DNA of 64,000 bases from Dehalococcoidia bacterium. GTDB lineage: Bacteria > Chloroflexota > Dehalococcoidia > Lucifugimonadales > UBA3495. A model generated the notes under the pieces. The model had not been told where the DNA came from and did not search any database. It was given only the letters and a program-made list of their open reading frames with translations. Below, piece after piece: positions 7,472-64,000 of the stretch (the stretch's first letter is position 1; each line of letters starts with the position of its first letter). A program made the position numbers and the translations under genes. The DNA is taken from the NCBI GenBank assembly GCA_965115825.1, contig OZ220464.1, positions 705,530 to 769,529 on the forward strand, given 5' to 3'.

Positions 7472-7828
7472 TGGTGGAGACGGGGGAGAGTCGCACTCCC
7501 CGTCCAGAAACTCCCCTGAGCGGATATGCTACAAGCTTGTTCGGCGCTTTGGTCTTGCTACTAGGGACTCCCGCCGACGGGATTCGTAAGCAGCCAGCCG
7601 ATAAAAGTCTGTGGCCTCGGTCATCGGCGTCGCCGAGGTAGCATCCCGGAATAATTGGACGTCCGCTTCCCGGCTTCCGGGCCTACCGGTGGCAGACGTA
7701 GCCGCGGTTAAGCGGCTAGAGCGAATTCACGTTCGCCAGTTAATTGTTCGCCACCGTTTTAGCGAGGGCAGCGGCAGCCTCGGCTTGCAATCCGTCAGAA
7801 AACGCTCCTGTCGAACCTACGCGTCCCC
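7472..7828 (-). ncRNA. ssrA: tmRNA (SsrA), one-piece, 357 nt
   Basis: On the minus strand the 5' end reads GGGGACGCGTAGGTTCGACAGGAGC and the 3' end reads GGGGAGTGCGACTCTCCCCCGTCTCCACCA. The acceptor stem GGGGACG/CGTCTCC contains the G3:U pair used by AlaRS. An internal tag frame, GGC GAA CGT GAA TTC GCT CTA GCC GCT TAA (GEREFALAA-stop), lies at 7708..7737. Confidence 0.9.
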
Positions 7829-7866
7829 AACAGAGGGCGTGACCAGCGTTGGCCGGCTACGCCAAG

Positions 7867-8442
7867 TTATATGATACCACCGTCGGGCGGGGATGGCAAA
7901 GGCAAGAATCGAGGTCGTTCCGGTGCCTTTTGGTGGTGGAGGATGGCGCCGGGGGGAGGGGCGCGGGTGGTGGGGTTGGCGGTGTTGTTCATGGTAGTTG
8001 TTTCTCTCCTTTTGGTCGGTCGGTGGATTCTGGGTTGGGTTCCTGGGGGTTCAGGATGTCGGCGCTACGGCCCGAGAGCGTGGCTTGCTATTTACGTCCT
8101 AGTCTTGCGCGTGCTGACGGCTGCTTGCGCAGTACTTCGTCTGCGATGTCGGGCGGTGTCCTGGCCGGTGCACCGGACTGGGACGGATATCCGACGGTTC
8201 GCGCGGGGCCGTTGGAGGAGCCTGACGGGGATATTGCAGCACGGTGGTACGGTTTTGCAAACGGTATTTTGTCAGAATCAGGATTTACCGGATTTTGGGA
8301 TTTTCAGGATTGGGTGGGCGGGTGCGTTGCGGAGCGTGGGTTGAGGTGTTGGAGTGGAGGATGGAGGTTGGGTTGGCGGGTTTGGCGGTGGGGGATTGGT
8401 TTGTCAGAATCAGGATTTACTGGATTTTGGGATTTTCAGGAT
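7867..8442 (+). repeat. Composite ~0.6 kb intergenic repeat, copy A (inverted partner at 57952..58660)
   Basis: Long blocks are near-identical to the reverse complement of 58033..58630, for example CATGGTAGTTGTTTCTCTCCTTTTGGTCGGTCGGTGGATTCTGGGTTGGGTTCCTGGGGGTTCAGGATGTCGGCGCTACGGCC. It ends with two 40-nt core repeats at 8271..8310 and 8403..8442. Confidence 0.85.
7871..7899 (-). promoter_or_regulatory. Candidate sigma70-type promoter of ssrA
   Basis: On the minus strand: TTGCCA (7894-7899), a 17-nt spacer, then TGgTATCAT (-10 at 7871-7876). This sits about 40 nt upstream of the mature tmRNA 5' end. Confidence 0.5.
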
Positions 8443-8568
8443 GGGGGTTGCGGCTTTCGCCGGAGTGGCGGTGGGAGGAGGATGGCGGCGGGGTTGCTTT
8501 GGCGGTTTCGGGCTGCCGCGCTATCCGTTATACTCTGTCCCCCCTGATAGGCGGGGCGGGAGTACATT

Positions 8569-9573
8569 ATGGCTGTTCGCATTTTGATTACCGATTTTGT
8601 TTGGCCTTCTACTGCGCCGGAGAGGGAGGTTCTGGCTGCCGGGCTGGGGGATGACGTGGAGGTGGTGGAGGCGCCGGACGGTTCGGAGGCGACGCTGTCC
8701 AGGCTGGCGGCTGACTGTGACGGGATTATGACCTGCTTTGCGCAGGTTACGCCGGCGGTGGCGCGGGCGGCGGAACGCTGTAGGGTTATCAGCCGCTATG
8801 GGGTGGGAGTGGACAACATCGCGGTGGATGTGGCTACGGAGCTGGGGATTCCGGTTACCTATGTGCCGGACTATTGCGTTCAGGAGGTTAGCGACCATGT
8901 GATGGCGCTGCTGCTGGCCTGGAATCGGCAGCTGGGGTTTTATGACCGGGCGGCGAAAGCGGGTCGTTGGGAGGGGACGCCTTCGCCGCATCCGCTGACC
9001 CGGCTGCGAGGGCAGACTGTCGGTATTGTAGGGTTCGGGCGCATCGGGCGGGCCGTGGCGGACAAGGCGCGGGCTTTTGGGTTATCGGTACTGGCTTTTG
9101 ACCCCTACCTGGCGGCGGGCGCGGAACTGCCGGACGGCGTAAAGAAGGCAAGGCTGTCCGACCTGCTGACGGCCGCGGATTACGTTACGGTGCACACGCC
9201 ATTGAATGAGGAAACGCGCGGGCTGATTGGAGCGCGGGAGTTGGGGCTTATGAAACCGTCGGCATACCTGATTAACTGCGCGCGGGGGCCCATCGTGGAC
9301 GAGCCGGCGCTGCTGGATGCGCTGCGGACGGGCAGCATCGCGGGGGCCGGACTGGACGTGATGGAGGCGTCAGCGCCGCCGGCGGACCATCCGATGTTTG
9401 GGCTGGATAACGTAATCATCACGCCGCACGTTGCCTTTCTGTCGCAGGAGTCGGTGCTGGAGCTGGAAGCGCGGACGGCGCAGGCCACAGTGGATGCGCT
9501 GCGGGGGAAGATGCCGGAGTTTCTGGTGAATCCGGCGGTGTTGGCGCATTCGCGGGTTCATTTACAGGGATGA
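8569..9573 (+). CDS. D-isomer-specific 2-hydroxyacid dehydrogenase (PGDH/CtBP-like)
   Basis: NAD-binding motif GIVGFGRIGRAVADKA. Catalytic region NCARGPIVDE...TPHVAF. Confidence 0.85.
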   Translation: MAVRILITDFVWPSTAPEREVLAAGLGDDVEVVEAPDGSEATLSRLAADCDGIMTCFAQVTPAVARAAERCRVISRYGVGVDNIAVDVATELGIPVTYVPDYCVQEVSDHVMALLLAWNRQLGFYDRAAKAGRWEGTPSPHPLTRLRGQTVGIVGFGRIGRAVADKARAFGLSVLAFDPYLAAGAELPDGVKKARLSDLLTAADYVTVHTPLNEETRGLIGARELGLMKPSAYLINCARGPIVDEPALLDALRTGSIAGAGLDVMEASAPPADHPMFGLDNVIITPHVAFLSQESVLELEARTAQATVDALRGKMPEFLVNPAVLAHSRVHLQG

Positions 9574-9623
9574 CAGGGTTCCCGCTTACGCGGGAATGAA
9601 GAGTAAAGGCTAGAGAGGATAGA

Positions 9624-10442
9624 TTGGGTACGGCAGGATTTACGGTTAGTTATCTGGGAACGGGGGCCGGGGGCTGCGTGATGCGGAATCATACGGCGAT
9701 AGTGGTGGAGTGTCCTTCGGGGGAGCGGATATTGCTGGATGCGGCATCGGGGAACACGGTGCCGCGCCACGCGGAGCGGCTGGGAATGTCGCTTACGGAG
9801 TTTGACCACTGCCTGCTGAGCCACAGCCATCCGGATCATTGCGAGGGCTTGCCGCATATTGAGATGCAGCGCAGCCGGCGGAACCCGGCGGAGCAGCCGA
9901 TGCGGCTGTACGGCTCGGGCGAGGCGTTGGCGGATGTGGGGACGCTGCTGGCTTATCGGCGGCGGGGGTTGACGGTTGAGGGGGACGGAGCGCGGCGCAG
10001 GGACGGGCGTCGGGTGTTTGACTTTCGTCCGGTGGAGCCGGGGGAGTGGGTGGAACTGACGCCCAACGCGCGAGCGAGGTGCGCGCCGGTTGACCACATT
10101 GGCGGCGCAGTGGCGTGGCGGGTGGAATCGTGCGGGCAGTCGGTGGTGTTCTCGGGGGATACGCGCTGGTGTCCGTCGCTGGCGGAGTTGGCAGAAGGGG
10201 CGACGCTGCTGATTCATGAGGCCATCTGCACGGAGGACGACCGGAGGCGGGCGGACGATGCAGCGCATGCTACGGCAGCGGAAGCGGCGCGCATTGCGCA
10301 GCTGGCCGGAGTGGGGTCGCTGACGCTGACGCACATTGACAACGCTTTTCACCTGGACGGGGAACGGCTGGCAGTGGAGGCGCGGTCGGTGTATGACGGG
10401 CCGGTAGCGGTGGCGGCGGATTGCTGGCAGGAGATGGTTTGA
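9624..10442 (+). CDS. MBL-fold metallo-hydrolase
   Basis: The HxHxDH motif is present (LSHSHPDHCEG), with a later HEA and a TLTHID block. The start is a TTG in the ORF track and is uncertain. Confidence 0.75.
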   Translation: MGTAGFTVSYLGTGAGGCVMRNHTAIVVECPSGERILLDAASGNTVPRHAERLGMSLTEFDHCLLSHSHPDHCEGLPHIEMQRSRRNPAEQPMRLYGSGEALADVGTLLAYRRRGLTVEGDGARRRDGRRVFDFRPVEPGEWVELTPNARARCAPVDHIGGAVAWRVESCGQSVVFSGDTRWCPSLAELAEGATLLIHEAICTEDDRRRADDAAHATAAEAARIAQLAGVGSLTLTHIDNAFHLDGERLAVEARSVYDGPVAVAADCWQEMV

Positions 10443-10509
10443 GCGGCTTGCGCTGCGTGATAGAATGACCGCCGGCCAGTCGGCGGCAAGCCGACTTTGC
10501 GTATCCATT

Positions 10510-11856
10510 ATGCACGAAACGCACACCAGAAACATCCACCCGGTGGTACGGGCGACGGAGCTGTTGCAGGAGTTTTCGCTGCCGCTGATTGCCGGCGTGG
10601 TGCTTGGGCTGTTGGCGGCGAACGTGAACCATCCCTGGTACGATGGGCTGGTGCATTTTCGCCCCTTTGGAGGTGGGGCTTATGTTTTCGGGCATAAGCT
10701 GGACCTGCACTTCATCATCAACGGGATGTTCATGTGCCTGTTCTTTGGCATTGCGGCCAAGGAGATTAAGGAGTCGACGCTGCCGGGAGGGGTGCTGAAT
10801 CCGCTGCGGCGGGCCATCAATCCGCTGATTGGGACGCTGGGAGGGGTGTTTGGGCCGGCGGGGCTGTACCTGCTGCTGGATTGGATCATTTTTGGAGGCA
10901 CCGTAGATTTCGGGGCCGTAGCCAATGGCTGGGCGATACCGACAGCCACGGACATTGCGCTGGCGTGGCTGGTGGCGCGGGTGGTGTTCGGGCCACTGCA
11001 TCCGGCGGTGAACTTTCTGCTGCTGCTGGCGGTGGTGGACGACGCCATTGGGCTGCTCATCATCGCAGCTTTTTATCCCGATCCGCATCATCCGGTGGAG
11101 CCGTTATGGCTGCTGCTGGTGGTTGGCGGAATGGCGGCGGCGTATGGGCTGCGGCGGCTACGGGTGCGATGGTGGCCGGTGTACATCCTGGTGGGCGGAG
11201 CGCTGTCGTGGAGCGGTATGGCCAAGGCGGGAGTGGAGCCGGCGCTGGCGTTGGCGCCCATCGTGCCGTTCCTGCCACATTCGGCGCCGGGGGATGCGCC
11301 TCATGCCCATTATGACGTAGAGCCCGTTGAACATGGCGGGCACAGCGTGCTGGAGCAGTTTGAGCATCAGCTGAAGCTGTTTGTGGACGTTGGGTTGTTT
11401 TTCTTCGCCTTCGCCAATGCCGGCGTGCCCTTCACCAGCATTGGCTGGGTAACAATAATGATTCTGGCCTCGCTGATAATTGGAAAAGCCGTGGGTGTGA
11501 CGCTGTTCTCGTGGCTGGCGGCCCGGGTTGGATTCCCGCTGCCAACGGGTATGGATGTTCGGCATCTGGTAGTGACGGGAGTGATTGCGGGCCTGGGGTT
11601 GACGGTGGCACTGTTTGTGGCGGGGAAGGCGTTTCCGGGGGATTCGCCTTTCCAAGAACCGGGCAAGATGGGGGCGGTGTTGAGCATCTTCGCTGCGGTG
11701 GTTGCATATATCCTGGGGAAAGCGCTGCGGGTGAAGCAGCAGCCCGGTTTGCGGCAGCGGACGGAGCGGCACGAGGGGATACTGCCGCACGCGCGCCATC
11801 ACAGCGACAGGACAGTGGCAGACCGGCCGAGGGGGGAATCCAGCGCAGACAACTGA
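10510..11856 (+). CDS. nhaA: Na+/H+ antiporter NhaA
   Basis: NhaA-specific blocks WAIPTATDIA, LLLLAVVDDAIGLLIIAAFY and FFFAFANAGV. The protein is polytopic. ATG 10510 was chosen inside ORF 10465..11856. Confidence 0.85.
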   Translation: MHETHTRNIHPVVRATELLQEFSLPLIAGVVLGLLAANVNHPWYDGLVHFRPFGGGAYVFGHKLDLHFIINGMFMCLFFGIAAKEIKESTLPGGVLNPLRRAINPLIGTLGGVFGPAGLYLLLDWIIFGGTVDFGAVANGWAIPTATDIALAWLVARVVFGPLHPAVNFLLLLAVVDDAIGLLIIAAFYPDPHHPVEPLWLLLVVGGMAAAYGLRRLRVRWWPVYILVGGALSWSGMAKAGVEPALALAPIVPFLPHSAPGDAPHAHYDVEPVEHGGHSVLEQFEHQLKLFVDVGLFFFAFANAGVPFTSIGWVTIMILASLIIGKAVGVTLFSWLAARVGFPLPTGMDVRHLVVTGVIAGLGLTVALFVAGKAFPGDSPFQEPGKMGAVLSIFAAVVAYILGKALRVKQQPGLRQRTERHEGILPHARHHSDRTVADRPRGESSADN

Positions 11857-11996
11857 ATCGCGCTGCCCGGTTATGGAGTAGGTTCCCGCCGGCGGGGGAA
11901 TGACGCACGGCTCATTGCCAAGTAGGACAGGGTACTAGTGGATTCCCGGGTGTGCGGGAATGACAGCGTTGAAAATTGAAAAGGAGAGGGAACGGA

Positions 11997-12290
11997 ATGG
12001 CGTTGATTGGAGTACTGACTCATCATTGGGCGAAAGAGGAGAGGGTGGATGAGGCGAAAGCGCTGCTGGAGGGCAACGGAGCGGCGCAGAGCCGGGCACC
12101 CGGGTTCGGCGCGCGGCAGACGTTTATATCGCTGTCGGATCCGACGAAAATCTCGACGCTGGTGACCTGGGAGAGCAACGAGATTTACGATGCGTGGCGG
12201 GCGAGTCCGGAACGTGCGGCGGCGATGGCGGGCGCGGAGGATCTGTGGTCGCGTCCGCCGGAATCGGAGCGGTTTGAGATGCAGGAGTGA
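11997..12290 (+). CDS. Antibiotic-biosynthesis-monooxygenase (ABM) domain protein
   Basis: About 97 aa with the ferredoxin-like ABM pattern (ALIGVLTHHWAKEE...ISTLVTWESNEIYDAW). An AAGGAGAGGG RBS lies upstream. Confidence 0.6.
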   Translation: MALIGVLTHHWAKEERVDEAKALLEGNGAAQSRAPGFGARQTFISLSDPTKISTLVTWESNEIYDAWRASPERAAAMAGAEDLWSRPPESERFEMQE

Positions 12291-12300
12291 CGGCTGAGTG

Positions 12301-13695
12301 TTACCGGCGGCGCGGCGTCAAGTCCAGCGGCGGCGAACTGCCGGGTAGGGATGCGGCTGGCGCCGCGGCGTCAGGCTGTTCAGGGAGTCCGTTAAGCAAT
12401 CTGCGAACAACCAGGATGAACAGGCCGGTCAGGGCGAGATTGAGGGCCAGGGACAGCATTGCGACGGTGACGATAGGGCCGCCGATGCCATAGCTGAGAC
12501 TGAGCACGAGGACTCCGGCGCCGACTTCGCCCCGGGGCCACATGCCGATGGCCAAAGCGAGCCGTTCCCGCCAGTGGGCTTCTCGGCGATAGCAAAAGGC
12601 GGGGAACATTTTGCCCAAGTTGCTCAAGACGGTCAATGCCAGCACGTGCCCTATCAACTCGAGCCAGCCGATGCTGGGTTGGCGGGCGGTTACGGAGTCG
12701 GTGTACCGGCCCTCGATCTTGCCGCCGTGCACGGCGGGGTCGTCCACAACACCGGCGGGGGCGGAGGAGTGAAGGGATTCCGGCGAGTGCGCAGGGTGCT
12801 GCGCATCCGGGCCGCCGAAAATCAGAGGCATACTCAGGCCTACGAGCACCATGAAAGTGGCGGAAACAACGGTTGCGGCGCGGCGTTCGCCGGGACGCTC
12901 CAGAACTTCGTGCAACGCCTTATCGGGTTCCGGAGCGGAATGGGGGTCGGTTGATGAGGAGGCGGGCCGGGGTCGGGCCAGACAGCCTACGACAAAGGCT
13001 GGCAGGAGGATTTCTATGTGGATTGGAACTGAGGGGTCGATTATATTGCCCCAGGCGTAGAGCAGCTCGCTGGCGCCGACAATCAAGGCGGCGTAGAGTA
13101 TGACATAAGGCCAGGTGACGGGCATCGGGATACGGTGCATCCACACGTAGGCGATGACCAGCAGGATGACCATCAGCACGACGGTGATGCCCAGCTGCCA
13201 GGCCAGTCCTACCATGAGCATCTTGAGGGGTATCATCAAGAGGACGGTATCCAGGTCGTCGAATATGGCCAGGATACGGGCTTTGCGGAACAGCCAGGTG
13301 GCGCCGAGGCCAGCGGCCGCAAGCATACTGAACAACACGCCGGCGGAAGTAGGCGCGGCGAATCGTCCGGCGAGGAGAGTTTCTTTCCACGCTTCGAGGT
13401 CGCCCCAGAAATCGGGCGGGAGCATCACAAACAGGAAATAGCCGGTGACGAACACCCAAGGGAACGATGCGGCGGTAAATGCGACCAGGTAGTCCCAACC
13501 GTACTGTTTCTTGTTGGACTTGTCGATGTTGAACTCGAAGCCGACGTGGATCATGATGAAAGCCAAGCCGGTCAACGTCAGCATACGGACGGCGTTGGCG
13601 ATGGCATCGGGGTAGTTGCCCAGGGTCATGGGCAGGGCTTGCGAAAGGCCGAGGCCTATGAACAGGAGGACGGAGTAGGTTATAACTTTGCGCAT
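12301..13695 (-). CDS. Cation:proton antiporter (CPA/Kef-type sodium-hydrogen exchanger family)
   Basis: 464 aa with about 12 TM segments. The overall pattern matches the Na_H_exchanger family (ILAIFDDLDTVLLMIPL), with a soluble insert in the middle. Confidence 0.7.
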   Translation of the reverse strand: MRKVITYSVLLFIGLGLSQALPMTLGNYPDAIANAVRMLTLTGLAFIMIHVGFEFNIDKSNKKQYGWDYLVAFTAASFPWVFVTGYFLFVMLPPDFWGDLEAWKETLLAGRFAAPTSAGVLFSMLAAAGLGATWLFRKARILAIFDDLDTVLLMIPLKMLMVGLAWQLGITVVLMVILLVIAYVWMHRIPMPVTWPYVILYAALIVGASELLYAWGNIIDPSVPIHIEILLPAFVVGCLARPRPASSSTDPHSAPEPDKALHEVLERPGERRAATVVSATFMVLVGLSMPLIFGGPDAQHPAHSPESLHSSAPAGVVDDPAVHGGKIEGRYTDSVTARQPSIGWLELIGHVLALTVLSNLGKMFPAFCYRREAHWRERLALAIGMWPRGEVGAGVLVLSLSYGIGGPIVTVAMLSLALNLALTGLFILVVRRLLNGLPEQPDAAAPAASLPGSSPPLDLTPRRR

Positions 13696-13927
13696 CGGTT
13701 ATCCCAAGGTGAAAGGGTGGAATTGCCAGGCTAACGCTCTGCTGTTAATTATACAGCATGGATACCGGGCTGCTAGCGCGGCGCGGGCGGCGATGAGCCG
13801 GGGCGCTTGGGATACCGGGGCCGAACTCGGCTCGTCGCTGCGCCGGCGCGGGGGGCCGTCGGCCCGGAGGAAATCGGGTACAGAGCCGAGGGTGTTGACG
13901 TGGGGGCGGCGGAGAGAATTGGCGGCT

Positions 13928-14908
13928 TTAATAGAGCAGCGGGGATATGTCGATTCTCTCGGCCAGCAGGTCGGCCATGCGCTCGGCTTTGTGGTCGTGG
14001 TGGGGGACTGCGGCGTCCAGCAGGTTGCCGATGGCATCGGCGGCGGCGACGGTTCCGGCGTCAACGAGGAGGACGGGGATGTTGCGTTTGGCGGCCTCTA
14101 CGCGGATGTACTCGGTGGGGCGCGCGCCGCCGGTTAGCACCAGGCAGAGAGTGTTCGGAACGAGGCTGGCCATCTGGATGTCGGGGCGCTCGGCGCGAGT
14201 GATGACGGCCTGGCGGGGGTAACGCCCGAAGTAGCCGGCGCCGGAGTCCATGATGTTGCCGCCGATGAGGAAGCGGTCGACCCAGGCTTCGGCATCGGAG
14301 GGTTCCAGTTCCCAGCGTCCGCCCAGAGAGTTGGCCAGTTGGGTCATGGTGAGGGAAAGCATGGGACGGTCTTCGGACAGCGCGCCGAGGGCGGGGACGC
14401 CGGCGGCGGCGATTTCGGCAAGTATTGAGGCGGCTTTGGCGACGCGGTAGCGCGGGGTCTGGTTGATGATGACGCCGGCCAGTCTGTCGCCCAAGTCGGA
14501 GACGGCGGCGGAGATAGTTGCGGCAGACAGCTCGGCGTCGTGGGCGAAAAGGGCGATGACACGGGCGGAGAGGCGTTCAGAGAGGCCGGTGGTCAATGGC
14601 GACGATATTCCGGAGCCGCTGACCGGATTGGCGACTTCCAAGAGGGTGTGCTCGTTGGCGTCGGAGAGGGCGCTGACGGCGTTGGCGGCGGCGTCCAGAG
14701 CGGCAGCGTCGCCAACGCCGGACACTGGAATATCGCTGTGAAAGCGGGAGGAGTAGAAGGCGGCGTCGGGGTCTGCGTCGCCAGCCGGGGAGAGAGGCTT
14801 GCAGAGGGATACGGAGGAGTGGCGGCGGGCGATGAGTTTCGCCAAGCCGGCGGCGACGGCAGTCTTGCCGGCGCCGGGGGTATGGGATGCGATGAGGAGA
14901 GTGGCCAT
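13928..14908 (-). CDS. P-loop (BioD/CobQ/Pta-N-terminal-like) + DRTGG domain protein
   Basis: N-terminal P-loop HTPGAGKTAVAAGLA. The C-terminal CLVLTGGARPTEYIRVEAAKRNIPVLLVD resembles a DRTGG domain. Confidence 0.6.
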   Translation of the reverse strand: MATLLIASHTPGAGKTAVAAGLAKLIARRHSSVSLCKPLSPAGDADPDAAFYSSRFHSDIPVSGVGDAAALDAAANAVSALSDANEHTLLEVANPVSGSGISSPLTTGLSERLSARVIALFAHDAELSAATISAAVSDLGDRLAGVIINQTPRYRVAKAASILAEIAAAGVPALGALSEDRPMLSLTMTQLANSLGGRWELEPSDAEAWVDRFLIGGNIMDSGAGYFGRYPRQAVITRAERPDIQMASLVPNTLCLVLTGGARPTEYIRVEAAKRNIPVLLVDAGTVAAADAIGNLLDAAVPHHDHKAERMADLLAERIDISPLLY

Positions 14909-14938
14909 AGAGTATTGGGGGATGGCGCGAGCGTTCGG

Positions 14939-15349
14939 TTATTCGGGGTTCACGGGGATGCGGAAAATAGGCTGCCCATCGGCGTTGTGGCTGTGGTTCA
15001 CCAGGGCGAGCAGGAGCTGCTGGTTGCCGCGGCGCATTTCTTCGAGGAGTTCGCTGCGTTGGTTCTGTATGGCTTCGAGGAGTTCGCTGCGTTGGTTCTG
15101 TATGGCTTCGAGGAGTTCGCTGCGCTGGTTCTGCAAGGCCTCGAGGAGTTCGCTGCGTATTTCGCGCATTTCTTTGCGCAGGTCTTCGGCTACGTCGTCA
15201 ATCTTTGCGTCCAGTTGGTCAACCTTTTTTTCGAGGTTGCCGACCCGGTTGCTCAGCTTGCCGAGCCAGAAGAACCCGCCGCCGATGAGCGCAAGCAGGG
15301 TGACGAAGCTGATTATTACCGTGAGAATGTCGGGGCTGATGGTGATCAT
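14939..15349 (-). CDS. Small membrane-anchored coiled-coil protein with 11-aa tandem repeats
   Basis: One N-terminal TM segment (ILTVIISFVTLLALIGGGFFWL), then a coiled coil containing RSELLEA(I/L)QNQ x3-4. These repeats are encoded by 33-bp DNA repeats at 15051..15170. Confidence 0.6.
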   Translation of the reverse strand: MITISPDILTVIISFVTLLALIGGGFFWLGKLSNRVGNLEKKVDQLDAKIDDVAEDLRKEMREIRSELLEALQNQRSELLEAIQNQRSELLEAIQNQRSELLEEMRRGNQQLLLALVNHSHNADGQPIFRIPVNPE

Positions 15350-15370
15350 GGTAAAAATCGCGGGCAGGGC

Positions 15371-16072
15371 TTAGTAGTCATCAACGCGGTTTTCGATGTA
15401 GGTGGGGTCGAAGCCGGGGGGAAATACGGTGGTGTCGTCCCACTTGCCCATGGTCATGTCACAGCGGTGGAGGCTGGCGCGGTTGAAGGTTGCGCCGCGG
15501 AGGTCGGTCATAATCCACATAGAGTCGCGGATTTTAGCGTTGGTGAAGTCGGCGCCGCGCATTACGGCGCGGCTGACGTCGGCGCCGTTGAGGTTGGCGC
15601 CCTGCCAGTTGGAGTTGGTGAGGTTGGCGGAGCGGAGGTCGACCTCAATAGCGGTGGTCTGGCTGCAATCGGCAGCAGTGAGGTCGGTATTGAGGAAGGT
15701 GGCGCGGTTGAGGCGGGACCATTGGAGGATGGCTTCCTGCATATTGGACTGCTTAAGGTCGGCCCAGAAGAGGTTGGCGTTGCGCAGGATGGCGGCGGAC
15801 ATTTGGGCGGAGGCAAGGGAGGCGCCGTAGAGGTCGGCGCCGGTGAGGTCGGCGGCGCTGAGGTCGGAACGGGAGAGGTTGGCTTTGGTGAGCCGGGCGT
15901 CGGTGAGGACGGCGCCGCGAAGGTCGGAGGCGCGCAAATCGGCGCCGGCAAGGTCAAGACCGGCCAGGTCGGCGGAGCGGAGGTCGAGGGGTTGGCCGGG
16001 GTTATCGGCGCGCCAGGCGGCCAGGGCAGCTTTGCCGGCGCGGATGATCGCCAGGTGTTCGTTGTTTGCCAT
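15371..16072 (-). CDS. Pentapeptide-repeat protein
   Basis: A(D/N)LxG-type pentapeptides run almost end to end (ADLAGLDLAGADLRASDLRGAVLTDARLTKANLSRSDLSAADLTGADL...). Confidence 0.9.
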   Translation of the reverse strand: MANNEHLAIIRAGKAALAAWRADNPGQPLDLRSADLAGLDLAGADLRASDLRGAVLTDARLTKANLSRSDLSAADLTGADLYGASLASAQMSAAILRNANLFWADLKQSNMQEAILQWSRLNRATFLNTDLTAADCSQTTAIEVDLRSANLTNSNWQGANLNGADVSRAVMRGADFTNAKIRDSMWIMTDLRGATFNRASLHRCDMTMGKWDDTTVFPPGFDPTYIENRVDDY

Positions 16073-16139
16073 GATGTTGGGGGTTCTCGCTTCTGCGGGA
16101 ATGACGGTTCTGGATGTGGGATGGAATGATGGTGTGGGG

Positions 16140-17420: not shown

Positions 17421-17506
17421 GGGGCACACTCGCTGGGGATTAGGGTAGGCGGGATTTACCATACCGCAGGCGGGGCCGGCAGTCAATGAATAGGGAAAGG
17501 GCTGCT

Positions 17507-18000
17507 TTGTCAGAATCAGGATTTACGGGATTTTGGGATTTACAGGATTGGGGTTGCGCTGTGGGGAGATTGCGGCTGCGTATCAGGTAGTAGGGCGGCG
17601 TTTCTTGTGGTGGGGTATTTGGGAGGGTGTGGTGTTTGTCAGAATCTGGATTTACGGGATTTTGGGATTTACAGGATAGGGGGTTGCGCTGTGGGGAGAT
17701 TGCAGCTGCGTATCAGGTAGGGGGTGGCGTTCTTTTGTGGGGGTATTGGGGAGGGTGTGGTGTTTGTCAGAATCCGGATTTACGGGATTTTGGGATTTAC
17801 AGGATGGGGGGTTGCGCTGTGGGGAGATTGCGGCTGCGTATCAGGTGGTAGGGTGGCGTTCTTTTGTGGGGGTATTGGGGAGGTTGTGGTGTTTGTCAGA
17901 ATCCGGATTTACGGGATTTTGGGATTTACAGGATAGGGGGTTGCGCTGTGGGGAGATTGCAGTCCTGTATCAGGTAGGGGGTGGCGTTTCTTGTAGCGGG
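17507..18000 (+). repeat. Tandem array, 4 x ~128 bp, each unit = 40-nt core + G-run-rich ~88 nt
   Basis: The TTTGTCAGAATC unit starts fall at 17507, 17635, 17763 and 17892 (periods 128, 128, 129). The cores lie at 17509..17548, 17638..17677, 17766..17805 and 17895..17934. The inter-core parts are also conserved between units. Confidence 0.95.
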
Positions 18001-57489: not shown

Positions 57490-57701
57490 CCCGCCTGACC
57501 CACAAATCCCGTACCCTGCAAACCAACCCTACGCTAACGGACTCTCGACATACTCCTCGCTTCCCAATCGCAAGGGTGGGGCTACTCAGTCCCGCCCTTG
57601 CGATTTATATGCCCGCCCTACACCTGACGATGCCCGGTCATACCCACACCTAACGCCGCCACTCCCACGCCCATCATTCCGGCGAAAGCCGGAACCTGGC
57701 G

Positions 57702-57990
57702 CCCCATACACGCCCCGGGCCCGCAACCTACATCCCCAATGCGAACCCCCCAATCCTGCCCATCCTAAAATCCCGTAAATCCTGATTCTGACAACAACCC
57801 CATACACGCCCCGGGCCCGCAACCACACCCCCATAGCGAACCCCCCAATCCTGCCCATCCTAAAATCCCATAAATCCTGATTCTGACAACAACCCCATAC
57901 ACGCCCCGGGCCCGCAACCACACCCCCATAGCGAACCCCCCAATCCTGCCCATCCTAAAATCCTGTAAATCCCAATTCAGACCATCCTCA
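57702..57990 (-). repeat. Tandem array, 3 x ~95 bp, core repeat in reverse orientation
   Basis: Units start at 57702, 57798 and 57893. Cores (ATCCTAAAATCCCGTAAATCCTGATTCTGAC) lie at 57762..57793, 57857..57887 and 57952..57982, the last one degenerate. Confidence 0.9.
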
Positions 57991-58660
57991 CCGCCAACCC
58001 CCATCCACCACTCCAACGCCCCAACCTACCCAATCCTGAAAATCCCAAAATCCCGTAAATCCTGATTCTGACAAATTGATGACATCCAACGCTTGCGAAG
58101 CCGTACGCCAGTACTTTACCCTATCCACGTCAGGCTCATCCGCCGGCCCCGCGCGAACCGTCGGATACCCGTCCCTGGCCAGGACAACTGCCCGACACCA
58201 CAACTGAATAGGAGTCTCACGGGGTTCAGGACATCACGGTCTAATCCGCCGCATCCGTACTGTGCGGCATGTCGGATCCATTGCACCACTGTGGTGCGCC
58301 GGAGGTCGGTCACATTACCCGGCTGGCGCACCCAGCACGGCGGGCGTCACCACCGCTGCGCGAGGACGGGCACTGCGCAAGCAGCCGTTAGCACGCGCAA
58401 GACTAGGACGTAAATAGCAAGCACGCTCTCAGGCCGTAGCGCCGACATCCTGAACCCCCAGGAACCCAACCAGAATCCACCGACCGACCAAAAGGAGAGA
58501 AACAACCAACATGAACACCGTCAACCCCAACTCCACTACCCGCGCCCCTCCCCACCGGCCGCCCCCAAAGGGGTGGCCATCGGTAGGTTGGCCACCACCA
58601 AAGCCCCCGGAACCGGGTTCCCATTCTCACCGTAGTAGCGGATTAGCAACTGCGAGGTGA
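57952..58660 (-). repeat. Composite intergenic repeat, copy B (inverted partner of 7867..8442)
   Basis: The full 40-nt core lies at 58033..58073. Positions 58380..58630 are near-identical to the reverse complement of 7900..8130. Copy B carries ~165 extra nt (about 58210..58375) relative to copy A. Confidence 0.85.
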
Positions 58661-58666
58661 TACAAT
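58658..58666 (+). promoter_or_regulatory. Extended -10 promoter candidate (TGATACAAT), near-leaderless sbcC-like mRNA
   Basis: The -10 hexamer ends 10 nt before ATG 58677. No SD lies in between. Confidence 0.35.
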
Positions 58667-58676
58667 CGGCGGCGAC

Positions 58677-61244
58677 ATGATCCCGCTGAAACTGTCTCTC
58701 CGCAACTTCCTCTGCTACCGGGATGACGTGCCGCCGCTGGACTTGCGCGGCGTCCACGTCGTCTGCCTCTGCGGAGCCAACGGCCACGGCAAATCCGCCC
58801 TGCTGGACGCCATGACCTGGTGCCTCTGGGGGCAAGCCCGCACTGGCAACCGCAACCACGACAGCCTGATTTCCCACGGTGAAACCGAGTGCCGGGTCCA
58901 GCTTGACTTTCTGGCCCAAGGCCAAACCTACCGCGCTGTTCGCCGCCGCCGTAGCGCTGGACGCGGCCGTTCCGAGCTCGACCTCTTCGTATTGGACGAC
59001 GTCGAGCATCCGCGCCCCATCACCGGCAACTCCCTCAACGAAACCAACGCCCACATCCGCCGTTTGGTCGGCATGGACTACGATACCTTCGTCAACTCCT
59101 CCTTCCTCCTGCAAGGCCGCTCCGACGAATTCACCCGCAAATCTCCCTCCGACCGCAAGGAAGTCCTTTCGTCCATCCTCGGATTGGGCCTCTACGAAAT
59201 TCTCCAGGCCGCCGCCCGCAGCCGCCGGGCAGAATGGCAGGACGCCGTCGCCCGCTCCGAGGGCGCCTTGGCGCAAACTAAATCCGCCCTGGACGCAGTT
59301 CCCGACCCAGCTCCCGAACTGGCCGCGCTCACCAATCGCCTGCACGAACTGGACGCTGAAATCACGTCAGCCTCAGCCGACGCGGCGGAGCGGCGAGCCG
59401 CTGTAACCGAACTCCGCCGTCAGGAGACCGAGCTGGCCGCATTGGAACGCCACGTCGCAGCCCTCACCAACGACATCGCTCGGGCTGCCGACTCCATCGC
59501 ACTCGCGCGACGCCGCATTAACCACTCTCAAACCCTGGCCCAAAGAGCCGATGAAATCGACAACGGCGTCGCCCGTCTCACCGCCGCCCGCAGTGAACTG
59601 GAACGCCTGGAAGCCACCCGCCGCGAGTACGACGATTTGCACGACCGCCGCAACAAGTTGCAAGTCGCAATCGGCCGGGAACAGGCTACCTTGTCCGCCC
59701 AGGCTGCCGAACTGCAACGCCGCATCCGCGACGAATTGGAACCCCTGACCCTGCAGCGCGACGGGATTGCCCGGCTGCTGGCAGACCTGCGCGACGCCGA
59801 GCAAAGGCTCATCGCGGAGCAGGAACGTATCGACGCCTGCCACGCCGCAGCCGCCGATTTGCAAACCCACATCGCGGTCAAGCAGGCTGCACTGGAGCAA
59901 TGCCTCGCCGAGGGTAAAGAACTCCGCGCCCGCCAGCAGGACATCGCCTCCGCCGGCGCATTGTGTCCCCTGTGCCGTACTCCCCTCACCGAAGACGCTT
60001 GCGGCGATATAGCCGAATGGTACGAAAATCAAATCACTGCCAAGCTGACGCTGCACCGCGAAATCCAGAAGACCCTCGGCGAACTGACCCGGCGGCAAAC
60101 GCAGCTGGCCGCCGACGCGGACCAGCGGCGCAACGCCCTCGCCCGCCAGCAGCGGCAGGCCCAACAGGAACGGGGACGCCTGGAACAGCAGCAGCGCCAA
60201 AGCGACGCCGCCCAGTCCCAGCTGCAAGAATCCCAGCCCCGATTGTCTCGGCTGCAAGACTTGCTGGCTCTCGGCGATTTCGCCCCCGCTGAGCGCGCCG
60301 CCATCGCCAAAATCGACGAGGCCGTCATCGCCCTGGCCTACGATGACGTCAGCCGCGAGGAGGCCTACCGTCTAACGCAATCCCTGCTGCATTGGGACAC
60401 CGAACGCCGGGATCGGGATACGGCATTGGCCCGCCTGCCCGACGACGAAGCGGAACTGCGCCAGGATGAAGCGCAGGCTGCGCGGTGGCGCTCCGAACTG
60501 GCCGACGCCCAGGCCGGCTTGTCCGCGGCTCGGGCCGCAGTGGCGGAACTGCCCGAGCGCGAAATCGCAGCTCAGTCCGCCGAAGCCGTCGTTGCCGCTC
60601 TGTCCTCCGAGCGGGATGAACTGCTCGCCCGGCGCGGACGCTTGCAGGGCGACGCAGAACGACGGCGCGCTTACTCCGCGGAAATCGCCAAACTGGAACA
60701 AACCCATGCCCAAGCGCAAGCCGAGCAGATCATCTACCAGGAACTGTACGTCGCCTTTGGCCGCAGCGGCGTGCCTGCCATGCTGATTGACGCCGCCGTG
60801 CCCCACATCGAAACCGAAGCCAACCACCTGCTGGGCCGGATGACCGACAACCGCCTGGCCCTCAAGCTGGAAACCCAGCGCCTGACTCAGGGCGGCAACG
60901 TATCCGAAACGCTGGACATTATAGTGAGCGACGAGCTTGGCCCGCGCAGCTACGACCTGTTCAGCGGCGGCGAAGCTTTCCGCATCAATCTGGCCCTGCG
61001 CATCGCACTGTCCCGGGTGCTTTCGCAGCGGTTGGGCGCGCCGTTGCCCACGCTCTTCATTGACGAGGGATTTGGCACCCAGGACACCGCCGGACGGGAG
61101 CGCATCGTTGACGCTATCGCCTCCATCCAAAACGAGTTCGAGAAAATCATCGTGATAACCCACCTGGACGAGTTGAAAGACTTGTTCCCCGTGCGCATTG
61201 AAGTGCTGAAGACCGAGTCAGGTTCGCAATTCTGGCTGAGCTAG
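58677..61244 (+). CDS. SbcC/Rad50-family ATPase
   Basis: Walker A GANGHGKSALLDA. A long coiled coil carries a CxxC zinc hook (CPLCRTPL). The signature is FSGGEAFR and Walker B is LFIDEGFG. No SbcD/Mre11 gene lies adjacent. Confidence 0.8.
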   Translation: MIPLKLSLRNFLCYRDDVPPLDLRGVHVVCLCGANGHGKSALLDAMTWCLWGQARTGNRNHDSLISHGETECRVQLDFLAQGQTYRAVRRRRSAGRGRSELDLFVLDDVEHPRPITGNSLNETNAHIRRLVGMDYDTFVNSSFLLQGRSDEFTRKSPSDRKEVLSSILGLGLYEILQAAARSRRAEWQDAVARSEGALAQTKSALDAVPDPAPELAALTNRLHELDAEITSASADAAERRAAVTELRRQETELAALERHVAALTNDIARAADSIALARRRINHSQTLAQRADEIDNGVARLTAARSELERLEATRREYDDLHDRRNKLQVAIGREQATLSAQAAELQRRIRDELEPLTLQRDGIARLLADLRDAEQRLIAEQERIDACHAAAADLQTHIAVKQAALEQCLAEGKELRARQQDIASAGALCPLCRTPLTEDACGDIAEWYENQITAKLTLHREIQKTLGELTRRQTQLAADADQRRNALARQQRQAQQERGRLEQQQRQSDAAQSQLQESQPRLSRLQDLLALGDFAPAERAAIAKIDEAVIALAYDDVSREEAYRLTQSLLHWDTERRDRDTALARLPDDEAELRQDEAQAARWRSELADAQAGLSAARAAVAELPEREIAAQSAEAVVAALSSERDELLARRGRLQGDAERRRAYSAEIAKLEQTHAQAQAEQIIYQELYVAFGRSGVPAMLIDAAVPHIETEANHLLGRMTDNRLALKLETQRLTQGGNVSETLDIIVSDELGPRSYDLFSGGEAFRINLALRIALSRVLSQRLGAPLPTLFIDEGFGTQDTAGRERIVDAIASIQNEFEKIIVITHLDELKDLFPVRIEVLKTESGSQFWLS

Positions 61245-61249
61245 GAGCG

Positions 61250-61395
61250 CCTCCCCCAGCGCGGGAGCGGGTACAAGAGAATTCCATCGCCGCACCTCAC
61301 CTGACCCGCGCTGCCCCAGCGCGGAATCGAGGTACTCCCTCCGGCTGACAGAGCCGGGCTAGACGGGCCCTCACCCCCGCGGAAACAGGGTACAG
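61250..61395 (+). repeat. Three ~24-nt direct repeats at ~59-60 bp spacing
   Basis: CCCCCAGCGCGGGAGCGGGTAC (from 61253), CCCCAGCGCGGAATCGAGGTAC (from 61314) and CCCCCGCGGAAACAGGGTAC (from 61374). Confidence 0.6.
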
Positions 61396-61527
61396 CAGGC
61401 GGGAAAAGCAGTTTCACGGCTTTTCGCCAGCGCATTGCGTTGACAGGTTGATAGCGTAGAGATAGACTTATCCTGGAAGTACACCAATACTGAATCCACG
61501 CGCCAGTCTGCGCGATTCTGGCGCTTT

Positions 61528-62634
61528 ATGCCTTCTAACAGCAAAATGCAACCGACAGTCAGTGAACCCGTTCTCAGGCCCCATGCGCTGCAATTGTCCG
61601 GGCTGTGCAAAGCGTTTCATGAAGTCAAAGCGGTCGTTGACGCGGACGTGGACTTGAAACGCGGCGAGATTCTCTGCCTGTTGGGCCCCAGCGGGTGCGG
61701 CAAGACCACCATGCTGCGCCTGATTGCCGGATTTGACGCGCCCGACGCCGGAACCGTTCACATTGACGGCAGGCTGGTAAGCGGCCTGGGCGTGAACGAA
61801 ACCCCGGAAAAGCGACGGGTAGGCATGGTGTTCCAAGACGGCGCTCTGTTCCCGCACCTCACGGTGGCCCAGAACATTGCTTTCGGCCTGAGCAAAAGCC
61901 TACGCCGCCAGGTGCGGGTAGCCGAGGCGTTGGAGTTGGTAGACTTGGCCGGGTATGACAAGCGCTACCCCCATCAGCTTTCCGGAGGGCAGCAGCAGCG
62001 GGTAGCGTTGGCCCGAGCCCTGGCGCCAGCGCCCGATTTAATACTGATGGACGAGCCCTTTTCCAGCCTTGACGCCGGCCTGCGTGGGCAGCTGCGCGCT
62101 GAGGTGCGGGCGATTTTGAAGCAGCGGGGCGCCAGCGTAGTCTGCGTAACCCACGACCAGGAAGAAGCAATGCAGCTGGCCGACCGAGTAGCGGTCATGA
62201 ACCAGGGCAGGATTGAGCAACTGGGGACTCCCGAAGCAGTGTTCAATTACCCTGACAACAGGTTCACCGCCGAGTTCTTCGGCATAGCCGACTTTATGCC
62301 GGCATGGCGGGATGGCAAACGTCTAGCCTGTGAGGTGGGGTCGATACCCTGGCGCGCTGGCGACCACCCTGACGGCGAGTTGCAGATTGTAGTCCGTCCT
62401 GACTGCTTGGATATGGACATCAGCGAAGAGGGCAATGGCGTAGTGGTGCAGAAGGAGTTTCTGGGAGGCTTCAATCTCTATCGTGTGGAGCTGGCCTCCG
62501 GCCAAAAGGTGCAGGTGATGCAGTCGCACATCATGCAGTACCAGCCCGGAACGAAGGTCAGTGTTTTCCTGCGCGCGGGACACCGTCCGCAGTTTTTCGT
62601 CAACGGCCGAGCCACCAACGCCGCGCCGCATTAG
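61528..62634 (+). CDS. ABC transporter ATP-binding protein (Fe3+/polyamine FbpC/PotA type)
   Basis: Walker A GPSGCGKTT, signature LSGGQQQR, Walker B LILMDEPFSSLD. It has a C-terminal TOBE-like domain. Confidence 0.85.
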   Translation: MPSNSKMQPTVSEPVLRPHALQLSGLCKAFHEVKAVVDADVDLKRGEILCLLGPSGCGKTTMLRLIAGFDAPDAGTVHIDGRLVSGLGVNETPEKRRVGMVFQDGALFPHLTVAQNIAFGLSKSLRRQVRVAEALELVDLAGYDKRYPHQLSGGQQQRVALARALAPAPDLILMDEPFSSLDAGLRGQLRAEVRAILKQRGASVVCVTHDQEEAMQLADRVAVMNQGRIEQLGTPEAVFNYPDNRFTAEFFGIADFMPAWRDGKRLACEVGSIPWRAGDHPDGELQIVVRPDCLDMDISEEGNGVVVQKEFLGGFNLYRVELASGQKVQVMQSHIMQYQPGTKVSVFLRAGHRPQFFVNGRATNAAPH

Positions 62635-63006
62635 GAACGCAAGCGGCAAATCCCGACTGCGGAGCGAGCCGATGAACCCGGTAACCTGACACGGCATCGC
62701 ACTAATAAAAACAGCTATGCCTAGGGCATTTCTTATAGAGCAAGCATGCCTGATTTACTGCGCTCATCTGCGTCACAGAAATGCACTCTGTTTCCTGTGA
62801 TGCCGGCGCACACCGGTCATATGCGGGGAAGTACTATTTCAGCGCGCCATGACTGTCGGTATGGCGCCTGCTGCTGGCTGAGAGGTCGTTTCCACAGCGC
62901 CATTGGGGTACGGAAATCGGTTGAACCGCTGTCGTGTATGGTAAGGTCGACGTTATCCAACGGGCTCGGAGCAAGCGAACAACACCGTGGTACAGGAGGC
63001 TGCGCG

Positions 63007-63426
63007 ATGCTGACGGACGGACAACGGGAGTTTCTGAATAACAATCACAACGGCGCGCTGACAACATTCCGGCGGAACGGGGCGGCGCAAATGAGCATCG
63101 TTACCTGTGGGCGGTATGACGACGGCGTGGCTTTCACCACTACCGCCGGCCGTTCCAAGCTGCGCAACCTGCGCCGGGAGCCACGTTGCACTATCCTGGT
63201 AGGCGCCGACGACTGGCGCAACTTCGTTGTGCTGGAAGGCGAGGCCCGCCTGGTCGGCGTTGATACCGTCAGCGCGGACGAATACCGTGAGACCCTGCGC
63301 AAGGTGTACCGCACCGCCGCCGGTCGGGAACATCCTAACTGGGACGAATACGATCAAGCGATGCTGGACGACGGGCGGTATGCCGTAATCGTAACACCGG
63401 CCCATGTCTATGGGAGGACTGATTAG
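63007..63426 (+). CDS. PPOX-class (pyridoxamine 5'-phosphate oxidase-like) F420-dependent protein
   Basis: ACAGGAGG precedes ATG 63007. It reads LNNNHNGALTTFRRNGAAQMSIV...ILVGADDWRNFVVLEGEARL. Confidence 0.65.
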   Translation: MLTDGQREFLNNNHNGALTTFRRNGAAQMSIVTCGRYDDGVAFTTTAGRSKLRNLRREPRCTILVGADDWRNFVVLEGEARLVGVDTVSADEYRETLRKVYRTAAGREHPNWDEYDQAMLDDGRYAVIVTPAHVYGRTD

Positions 63427-63960
63427 GGGGGGACAGCGCTGCGATGGGTTAGGAGTGGGCGGAGTTGTCGCTAGCCAATGCCCTCTGCATGCCGTAGGGA
63501 AGGTACGTCAAGAGGTATGCTGTCATGGTAGTACATACGTTTGACATGGTGGGCTATAAGACCGCGCCGGCTATGGCGTCGGGATTGACCGACCGGATAC
63601 GAGACATCCGCCGGCTAACCGACCTGGTTTTAGAGCATCGGCCCAAACCCGGCAAGGTCAGGTCGTACAAGCTCCGCGCGAAGTCGCCGATTTCAAAGTG
63701 AGACACTACCCGGCCTACGCTTATGGGAGGACGGATTAGGGGGACTGCACTTCGATGGGGTGGGGGTGGGCCGAGTTGTCGATAGCCGATTCTCTCTGCA
63801 TACCGCAGGGGAGATACGTCAGGAGGTATGTTGCCATTGTAACCCCTGCCTATGTTTATGGGAGGATGGCTTCGGGTGGACGGCAATGTGATGGGTTGGG
63901 GGAGGGCGGAGTTGTAGCTAGCCAATGCCCTCTGCATGCCGCAGGGAGGATGCGTCAAAG
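63377..63960 (+). repeat. ~135-bp repeat units that begin inside the 3' end of the PPOX gene
   Basis: The unit GGTATGCCGTAATCGTAACACCGGCCCATGTCTATGGGAGGACTGATTAGGGGG...GCCAATGCCCTCTGCATGCCG recurs at about 63377, 63514 (diverged), 63704 and 63827. The array continues to the window edge. Confidence 0.75.
63546..63701 (+). mobile_element. Possible transposase C-terminal tail remnant
   Basis: A 51-codon frame, MVGYKTAPAMASGLTDRIRDIRRLTDLVLEHRPKPGKVRSYKLRAKSPISK. The PAMA-G-TD...L tail followed by a basic patch resembles C-terminal tails I recall on some DDE transposases. It is embedded in the repeat block. Confidence 0.3.
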
Positions 63961-64000
63961 TGGATGTCGTCGTAGTGGCCGTTGAGGGCTGCCAGCACCC

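Follow-up and report, generated by a model that had tools for sequence, protein, structure and literature searches.

The window analysed here is a 64 kb stretch (coordinates without a prefix follow its numbering) of an uncultured Dehalococcoidia metagenome-assembled genome (MAG), G000, which is a single 3,265,669-bp contig with 61.9% GC and is 95.1% complete. Comparison genomes are labelled G001-G041, with G003 as the closest relative (transfer-messenger RNA, tmRNA, 94% identical; genes ~80%). The window holds two inverted copies of a repeat, A and B, one beside the tmRNA gene ssrA and the other beside an SbcC-like open reading frame (ORF). We find that both belong to a genus-restricted family of insertable cassettes, which combine a core repeat, a promoter-like site, a conserved leader and, in most copies, a mini-ORF with an Arg-x-Pro-Pro (R-x-P-P) motif. 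Copy A and its neighbour consist of the following features.

7953..8480, minus strand: copy A, whole extent homologous to B and the family, with a ~180-nt internal deletion relative to B
8403..8442, minus strand: core repeat 2 of copy A
8271..8310, minus strand: core repeat 1 of copy A, a 40-nt GGATTT-periodic unit with its G-rich sense on the plus strand
8233..8261, minus strand: promoter-like site TTTGCA-17-TGCAAT of copy A, missed by a simple scan (TTTGCA-17-TACAAT/TATAAT at the same position in most copies)
8010..8229, minus strand: conserved leader of copy A, with the near-invariant block ...ACGCTCTC.GGCCGTAGCGCCGACATCCTG...
8004..8009, minus strand: Shine-Dalgarno (SD) sequence GGAGAG of copy A, ATG 11 nt on
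7867..7992, minus strand: mini-ORF of copy A, 41 codons, MNNTANPTTRAPP..., its tail running into the ssrA promoter, with family homology stopping just past the RAPP codons
7954..7965, minus strand: Arg-Ala-Pro-Pro (RAPP) codons CGC GCC CCT CCC of copy A
7871..7899, minus strand: ssrA promoter-like site TTGCCA-17-TATCAT with TG, from a promoter scan
7472..7828, minus strand: tmRNA gene ssrA, downstream neighbour of copy A (Rfam, 120.6 bits)

Copy B lies on the opposite strand and carries the corresponding parts.

57662..58553, plus strand: copy B, a tandem core array followed by a full-length module
57714..58088, plus strand: tandem array of copy B, four ~95-nt units with cores at 57753-57792, 57848-57887 and 58033-58072, C-rich sense on the plus strand
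58093..58120, plus strand: promoter position of copy B, degenerate (TTGCGA-16-TTTACC, 7/12)
58129..58493, plus strand: conserved leader of copy B, from GTCAGGC to the A/C-rich linker
58494..58499, plus strand: SD sequence GGAGAG of copy B
58511..58660, plus strand: mini-ORF of copy B, 49 codons, MNTVNPNSTTRAPP..., its stop 16 nt ahead of the SbcC-like ATG
58541..58552, plus strand: RAPP codons of copy B
58677..61244, plus strand: SbcC-like ORF (AAA_23 and SMC_N domains) downstream of B, the first gene of a segment that is inverted relative to five relatives

A preliminary description of the window had proposed that the two regions match in inverted orientation, and this is borne out. A repeat finder pairs 7953-8480 (minus) with 57662-58553 (plus) far beyond chance, in blocks that range from 77 to 98% identity (I20, 32 nt, 88%; I6, 63 nt, 87%; I8, 50 nt, 98%; I7, 51 nt, 98%; I1, 71 nt, 83%; I2, 62 nt, 92%; I10, 47 nt, 96%; I23, 35 nt, 77%), and blastn aligns A with B at 92.1% over 190 nt; ~180 nt of B (58193-58371) is deleted within A. 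The limits proposed for the match hold for its inner parts and fail at the outer ends, where 7867-7952 and 58554-58660 are the non-homologous tails of the two mini-ORFs and homology ends at 7953 and 58553. The placement of A next to the ssrA promoter (7899-7871) and of B next to the sbcC-like gene was correct, as was the presence of housekeeping genes between them. The statement that the repeat is present twice does not stand, as blastn of the module against the genome recovers 46 copies.

These 46 modules form the family in G000. With the non-core part of B as query, blastn finds 49 loci, made up of 45 long copies, A as two high-scoring segment pairs and three fragments. The 40-nt core, counted at up to 7 mismatches to the unit, occurs 336 times in 142 loci and is present in 140 of the 2,241 intergenic regions left by a crude ORF calling (2,671 ORFs). 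Module identity is 82-97% over ~400-480 nt ahead of unrelated genes, which lies above the mobile-promoter criterion of at least 80% over at least 50 nt. In a MAFFT alignment of 45 copies, most columns are at least 90% conserved from one core through ~430 nt to ~40 nt past an ATG, where, just beyond RAPP, similarity among the copies collapses.

Read in the C-rich sense, each module has a C-rich spacer with its core or cores, a promoter-like site, the leader, an A/C-rich linker with an SD sequence, and an ending. Cores are present singly or severally and often form tandem arrays of 95-130-nt units. The promoter-like site has a fixed position just upstream of CCCCGTCAGGC and agrees with TTGACA/TATAAT at 9 or more of 12 positions in 35 of the 45 copies, typically as TTTGCA-17-TACAAT and in many copies with a perfect TATAAT. 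The leader, ~240 nt in A and ~380 nt in B, ends in a near-invariant block of ~35 nt and is followed by the linker with AAAGGAG(A/G)G. The module ends either in the mini-ORF or in a CA-rich linker followed by CCAGGAGGC and an ORF of 274-419 amino acids, the latter in 11 copies.

The mini-ORF, defined as an SD sequence, a start and an ORF with R-x-P-P within 26 codons, is present in 33 of the 46 modules, as RAPP in 27 (A and B included), RPPP in four, RSPP in one, c1817027p, and RDPP in one; the remaining 13 comprise the 11 ORF-type modules, one truncated module and one with a different ORF. The SD sequence lies 9-11 nt upstream of the start, and the conserved part spans 9-18 codons, with R-x-P-P as its only invariant part. 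Among the 66 proline codons, positions 1 and 2 never vary and all four third bases are used (first proline: CCC 14, CCT 8, CCA 6, CCG 5; second proline: CCG 14, CCC 14, CCA 4, CCT 1), and arginine is encoded by CGC in 28 copies, AGG in two, CGA in two and CGG in one. The stretch before the arginine has seven different lengths of 5-14 codons, all in frame, and what follows Pro-Pro is dissimilar between mini-ORFs and ranges from 0 to over 57 codons. These in-frame length changes, together with the synonymous variation of the proline codons, show at the level of codon patterns that selection acts on the R-x-P-P peptide motif.

RAPP has been described as the motif at the core of ribosome arrest peptides of the ApdA/ApdP class (PMC7897499, PMC10951233, PMC12992588). 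Fujiwara et al. 2025 (PMC12992588) report arrest by RAPP and RGPP that is refractory to elongation factor P (EF-P), describe RDPP and RSPP as partly permissive, and state that RAPP-type motifs are avoided proteome-wide in bacteria generally. The proteome of G000, as given by the crude ORF set, follows this pattern: RAPP is observed 8 times against 25.4 expected, RGPP 0 against 19.2, RSPP 3 against 12.3 and RDPP 1 against 13.2, with 48 observed against 40.2 expected for the control AAPP.

The cassette can be seen as a discrete insertion. Module c1817027p is a clean 668-nt insertion whose site is empty in all three relatives compared (G003, G041 and G018). At the empty site of G003, 24 nt separate the stop codon of a GS-like gene from the ATG of the next gene, and in G000 the cassette lies between the stop codon of the GS-like gene and the last 26 nt of the spacer before the next ATG (L097 7636-8303). 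The inserted piece comprises the C-rich arm, core, promoter, leader, SD sequence and mini-ORF including its stop. The element is also absent at the G003 X|Y site and at the site upstream of sbcC. No empty site is definable for copy A because no relative shares the DNA upstream of ssrA; homology to the ssrA loci of 29 relatives stops at 7829-7831.

Insertion is accompanied by a near-absolute strand polarity. The GC skew of G000 is a mosaic with 84 switch points by hidden Markov model (HMM) and blocks at ±0.2-0.3; two of the switches, at ~21971 and ~61471, lie in the window. The skew is seen at third codon positions irrespective of gene strand, and ~70% of genes lie on the C-rich strand. Module orientation agrees with the skew of the masked ±6-kb flanks in 44 of 46 cases, core loci agree in 128 of 142 (6 disagree and 8 are weak), and by HMM skew state 333 of 336 cores keep one polarity per block, inverted pairs being rare in G000; in other species, 34 of 36 elements match the local skew. 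Strand polarity is known for IS200/IS605 insertion sequences (IS) and for REP elements. The skew is plus in the block of copy A and minus in that of B, and because copies follow the local polarity and the switch at ~21971 lies between them, their inverted orientation is sufficiently explained by this rule alone. The polarity of homologous skew segments is itself not conserved with relatives (r = 0.16; 33 of 59 with the same sign), and skew is stronger in G000 than in them (mean |skew| 0.162 vs 0.102).

Copies of the family also coincide with points of rearrangement. The relevant features of the window, with the genes between A and B, are as follows.

17503..18000, minus strand: stand-alone array of four ~129-nt core-containing units with the polarity of copy A, starting 8 nt past the end of a synteny block (17495)
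31672-34482, minus strand: polA, between A and B
51267-54344: class-I aminoacyl-tRNA synthetase, between A and B, found by domain search
58658-67843 (in-window part 58658..64000): 9.2-kb segment inverted relative to G003, its far end abutting the module at G000:C1:773410-773870 (minus strand)

The 9.2-kb inversion is bounded by copy B and by the inverted module at 773410-773870, which is 94% identical to B (hereafter the 773-kb copy); the corresponding junction of G003 is a 62-nt spacer with no element. G041, G021, G018 and G002 have the two flanking genes arranged as in G003, so the inversion is derived in G000. Immediately 3' of the 773-kb copy the Y1 promoter (GTTGACC-17-TATAAT) is still present, as are the sbcC-proximal 20 nt immediately 3' of B, which is what recombination between two inverted cassettes predicts. 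Synteny with G003 is broken again beyond the 773-kb copy, so that more than one event must have occurred near it. The preliminary description had proposed that A and B, as inverted repeats, could promote inversion of the DNA between them, and the general idea is supported by this neighbouring pair, whose inversion is seen against five relatives. It fails for A and B themselves: their interval is not one inverted unit relative to G003, since 24577-57489 is colinear (plus) and 8578-17495 maps 1.5 Mb away in minus orientation.

Other breakpoints in the window fall at 7829|8578 (copy A) and 17495|24577, where the core array begins at 17503. The window has three element-bearing sites (A, B and the stand-alone array), and within 141-68400 all four element-bearing intergenic regions, out of ~55 intergenic regions, are synteny breaks. 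The synteny comparison covered eight modules and ~110 kb in total. Five further modules, chosen by a fixed rule as every eighth in genome order, comprised three at block edges (c1156819m, c2507955p and c2913821p), the clean insertion c1817027p and one inside a 9-kb unmatched region, which brings the synteny breaks to six of eight modules. Among 10 other G000 breakpoint edges met incidentally, only two were within 700 nt of a core; elements therefore mark breaks, but most breaks are without an element. Nor are skew switch points concentrated near elements, with 8% of them within 1.5 kb compared with 12.5% at random. Aligned to the 17 kb that span B and the 773-kb copy, public short-read contigs from four runs of one study end at the repeats and cannot resolve alternative junctions. 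A single opposite-strand joint (L094 3920/14493, with a 33-nt side, seen in one run) is located within repeat arrays and is unreliable. Contigs from public runs also show length variants of the copy B array (L094 3645-4515, equivalent to window 57615-58485), with skips of 335, 229 and 227 nt and one step of 323 nt back; this suggests that its copy number is unstable, and other family copies may contribute to the variants.

A longer form of the element exists at 11 loci as a 2.3-kb unit in which further cores, in the same orientation, lie downstream of the ORF, and this unit is probably the parent form of the cassettes. The N- and C-terminal parts of its ORF are near identical among the 11 copies, and the middle is a variable 20-amino-acid repeat (..THIDATQANNDGNTRRRQN..). 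The repeat differs in copy number in each of the 11 (274-419 amino acids; e.g. L011 759-1583, minus strand) and is absent from homologues in other MAGs. These homologues, of ~232 amino acids and 45-48% identity, occur in other Chloroflexi MAGs and are annotated as hypothetical; no Pfam, PHROG or NCBIfam match was found for the ORF. In an AlphaFold model (pLDDT 69), its N-terminus is a four-helix bundle most like HEPN proteins, with 2hsb (HEPN) as the best Foldseek match (TM 0.82 on the target; E 6.7e-3, a weak value, with none at E <= 0.001 in PDB), and an invariant R46...H50 gives Rx3H, compared with the canonical HEPN spacing of Rx4-6H. The model is thus weakly suggestive of a HEPN-like fold. 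A Cas4-domain ORF occurs once in G000, at 3151694-3152215, and no core lies within 1.5 kb of it. The preliminary description had named, as a possible refutation, that the repeat might be the end of a known IS or intron family with an ORF elsewhere. Half of this holds: the repeat makes up the 5' portion of the multi-copy unit, which includes an ORF. The other half does not, for this ORF falls into no IS or intron family known so far.

A 532-nt query matches 19 of 24 genomes of the same genus, mostly through the core (91-98% identical) and in six through parts of the leader, and has no match in 16 genomes from other families of the order. When an invariant 21-mer was searched in contigs representing one genome per species, almost all of the matches listed were in Dehalococcoidia MAGs, with many per genome, and the few singletons listed from other taxa look like chance. 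The promoter box (TTGACA-18-TACACT/TATACT), a number of leader blocks and the SD sequence are retained by homologues elsewhere. As these parts are kept in other species, some of which lack the mini-ORF, the RAPP mini-ORF is a lineage-specific elaboration of an older promoter-leader repeat. In other species of the genus (L008, L009 and L010), cores occur as adjacent inverted pairs ~22 nt apart, whereas the arrays of G000 are direct. Leader copies of G017 (L004, L064, L066 and L067) contain inserted hairpin repeats of type GTCATTCCGGCGAAAGCCGGAATCCAGG, and a similar sequence, CATTCCGGCGAAAGCCGGAAC, is present in the window at 57675-57696 and 8452-8466, beside copies B and A.

We hypothesize, with a probability of about 0.5, that the cassette is a mobile promoter with an arrest-peptide leader, whose inverted copies serve as substrates for rearrangement. 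From sequence we infer promoter activity, ribosome arrest, an effect on the downstream gene and a copying mechanism. The cassette would be copied into intergenic DNA always in a single orientation with respect to the local strand composition, in most cases ahead of a co-oriented gene, and would there act as a portable promoter with a translated leader. A ribosome stalled at RAPP on the C-rich, G-poor leader might then set how much transcription or translation reaches the downstream gene, the likeliest routes being occlusion of Rho or RNase access or a gating of coupled translation. Copies that lie on either side of a polarity switch are necessarily inverted and are therefore substrates for inversions and other rearrangements, as documented for B and the 773-kb copy. 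A wider proposal, which we regard as doubtful, is that one promoter, leader and RAPP mini-gene spread before ~33 unrelated genes forms a single translation-state regulon, and that the same copies drive the rearrangements behind the mosaic of skew blocks.

Several observations weigh against a mobile promoter with an arrest-peptide leader. Regarding arrest, Fujiwara et al. 2025 state that the RAPP motif alone is insufficient and that N-terminal context is needed (PMC12992588), and only 5-14 polar residues (rich in N, T, P and K) precede the arginine, too few for a signal or transmembrane segment. Sequence 3' of RAPP is unconserved across copies, so that there is no common mRNA switch, and copy A precedes ssrA, whose product is an RNA and for which a leader acting on translation would be meaningless. 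Eight copies in G012 end in M..LPPTARPPP, and RPPP is not avoided in the G000 proteome (11 observed against 12.7 expected, a ratio of 0.87); in G017, G001 and one further Dehalococcoidia MAG, the homologous spot has an SD sequence with no start codon and no R-x-P-P. With respect to the promoter, the position scores only 7/12 in copy B and four close relatives, and a simple scan calls no module promoter in the three copies scanned (A, B and c1817027p); together with the terminator scan, it returned nothing in B or c1817027p and only the ssrA promoter in the region of A. Downstream genes are unrelated and co-oriented in 30 of 35 non-ORF-type modules. This excess is only modest over the ~70% expected (binomial p ~0.03, our own estimate) because ~70% of genes lie on the C-rich strand and the modules follow the polarity rule. 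As for mobility, the one junction pair examined, c1817027p against the empty site of G003, shows no evident target duplication, and there are no terminal inverted repeats, the cores that flank the 2.3-kb unit being direct and the RAPP-type cassette having a core at one end only. No Y1_Tnp/RAYT gene (PF01797) was found in G000 at its 95.1% completeness, in a search confined to this transposase family.

A structured RNA could also account for conservation of this kind, and the preliminary description had noted hairpins in the non-core part and raised this option. The conserved part of ~330 nt would then be a cis-regulatory leader or sensor, or the RNA partner of the HEPN-like protein, and the repeats would be an RNA gene family. 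The region is conserved in at least eight species or subfamilies, has the almost invariant block of ~35 nt, which is multi-copy almost only in Dehalococcoidia MAGs among the matches listed, and lies just downstream of a fixed promoter-like site. A hairpin, H1, between ACGGyC and GTCGGA keeps its position in 11 of 11 distinct variants with entirely different stems (z -2.9 to -4.4), and over the ~95 nt that follow, the same topology of a long hairpin plus a hairpin is predicted in every subfamily. Covariation and thermodynamics give little to add to this: RNAalifold on a MAFFT alignment of 26 cross-species sequences yields seven pairs at -6.1 kcal/mol, one of them with a double change, and -2.9 kcal/mol on the 3' block, minimum free energy (MFE) z-scores are -0.09 and +1.07 for the two strands of copy B, and the z-score of the main domain is ~0. 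A scan of the window at the Rfam gathering threshold returned tmRNA only, with no match for the repeat at E up to 10 above chance; a match of ilvH to the other strand of copy B, in the scan at E up to 10, is at chance level. Moreover, G012, G041 and three G003 copies have no H1, the 180 nt missing from copy A include the hairpins, and in the short forms of G017 the promoter is followed at once by the final ~85 nt. A functional fold of the leader is thus possible but unproven, the structured-RNA idea of the preliminary description is weakly supported, and we consider it quite unlikely that structured RNA is what the family is.

Purely selfish DNA would explain other parts of the record. Under this alternative, which we regard as rather unlikely, the cassettes are non-autonomous elements resembling miniature inverted-repeat transposable elements (MITEs), derived from the 2.3-kb core-flanked unit and spread by some strand-specific process, dependent on single strands or on the replication fork, with promoter and mini-ORF serving the element itself and not host regulation, e.g. 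by limiting polar damage where it inserts. The clean insertion with empty sites in three of three relatives, the 46 near-identical copies, their near-absolute polarity, the position of copy A before an RNA gene and the varying length of tandem arrays in public contigs all speak for this alternative. Terminal inverted repeats are lacking, however, and the flanking cores of the 2.3-kb unit are direct; the one clean junction shows no evident target duplication, the genome has no Y1 transposase and the 11-copy ORF matches no transposase family, and strong selection on an R-x-P-P peptide is not needed for mobility alone. That A and B act as a specific pair, with inversion of the 49.5-kb housekeeping segment between them as their role or chief effect, is highly improbable. 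Their identity of up to 98% in 50-nt blocks, their positions at synteny breaks relative to G003 and the real inversion bounded by another inverted pair of the family speak for such a role, but in a family of 46 copies chance alone would be expected to place an inverted pair ~50 kb apart. Compared with G003, the interval is also not one inverted block, the skew switches at ~21971 and ~61471 are not at A or B and such points are not enriched near elements, and public short-read contigs break at the repeats and give no reliable alternative junction.

The proposed mobile promoter with an arrest-peptide leader shares properties with several known systems. Putative mobile promoters, Correia, ERIC and REPIN elements (PMC3575422) are comparable in that highly similar non-coding sequence with a promoter-like site recurs ahead of non-homologous genes, both inside a single genome and among related species; the cassette differs in being much longer (0.5-0.7 kb), in its conserved leader and arrest-motif ORF, its strict strand polarity, its lack of terminal inverted repeats and the existence of a gene-bearing 2.3-kb form. 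REP and BIME-REPIN repeats with RAYT, and IS200/IS605, resemble it in comprising hundreds of short intergenic repeats with an orientation tied to strand asymmetry and, as far as the one junction pair examined shows, no target duplication. In contrast, the cores of G000 form direct tandem arrays and not inverted pairs, each core is 40 nt and GGATTT-periodic rather than a hairpin, and no Y1/RAYT gene was found. In ApdA/ApdP and the RAPP/RGPP upstream ORFs (uORFs) of Streptomyces lividans, too, a small ORF with an SD sequence and an invariant Arg-Ala-Pro-Pro precedes another gene. The variants tolerated here, RSPP and RDPP, are those reported as partly permissive, and elsewhere in the G000 proteome the motif is avoided. 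Those peptides are typically small secretory or membrane proteins, whereas the mini-ORFs have no signal or membrane segment and their motif is not near a conserved C-terminus; arrest is a prediction here, and a single conserved uORF-gene pair is replaced by a 46-copy insertable repeat before unrelated genes. Finally, inversions mediated by IS elements or other repeats are comparable to the 9.2-kb inversion between two inverted copies of ~94% identity, with the differences that the repeats here are not IS elements and that the A-B pair shows no such inversion.

The RAPP-type arrest peptides known so far are single sensors, each specific to one locus. Should the proposed reading be true, a stalling mini-gene that moves together with its promoter and leader could bring many genes under translation-dependent control simultaneously, and the cassette would be a natural, compact and portable stalling module. 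A limited full-text literature search found no published link between arrest peptides and mobile or dispersed repeats, which is not proof of absence. The family is in any case a clear example of strand-polar repeats that coincide with synteny breaks and offers a handle on the 84 strong GC-skew switches of this genome; if it is only selfish DNA, it is a new repeat family in an uncultured lineage and of modest interest.

Further observations concern the surroundings of the copies. ARAGORN called no tmRNA or tRNA in the whole 64-kb window, though Rfam finds the tmRNA at 7472-7828. At G000:C1:171774-173692, ~1.9 kb is 93-96% identical to G003, G041 and G018, compared with ~78% for ordinary genes, and its counterpart lies directly upstream of ssrA in G003; this may be an rRNA gene or recently exchanged DNA. 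Downstream of the SbcC-like ORF, 61245-63005 and 63426-63921 are G000 DNA without a counterpart at the orthologous site of G003, which has just 22 nt and 46 nt in their place, and include an ORF (61528-62634) and three ~103-nt repeats at 63427, 63738 and 63874. Tandem repeats also occur between A and B, as five 33-nt units (CTTCGAGGAGTTCGCTGCG...) in a coding-looking region at 15007-15191 and as ~25 24-nt units at 39837-40436 inside the ORF 39793-41985, which has PQQ/beta-propeller domains further on.

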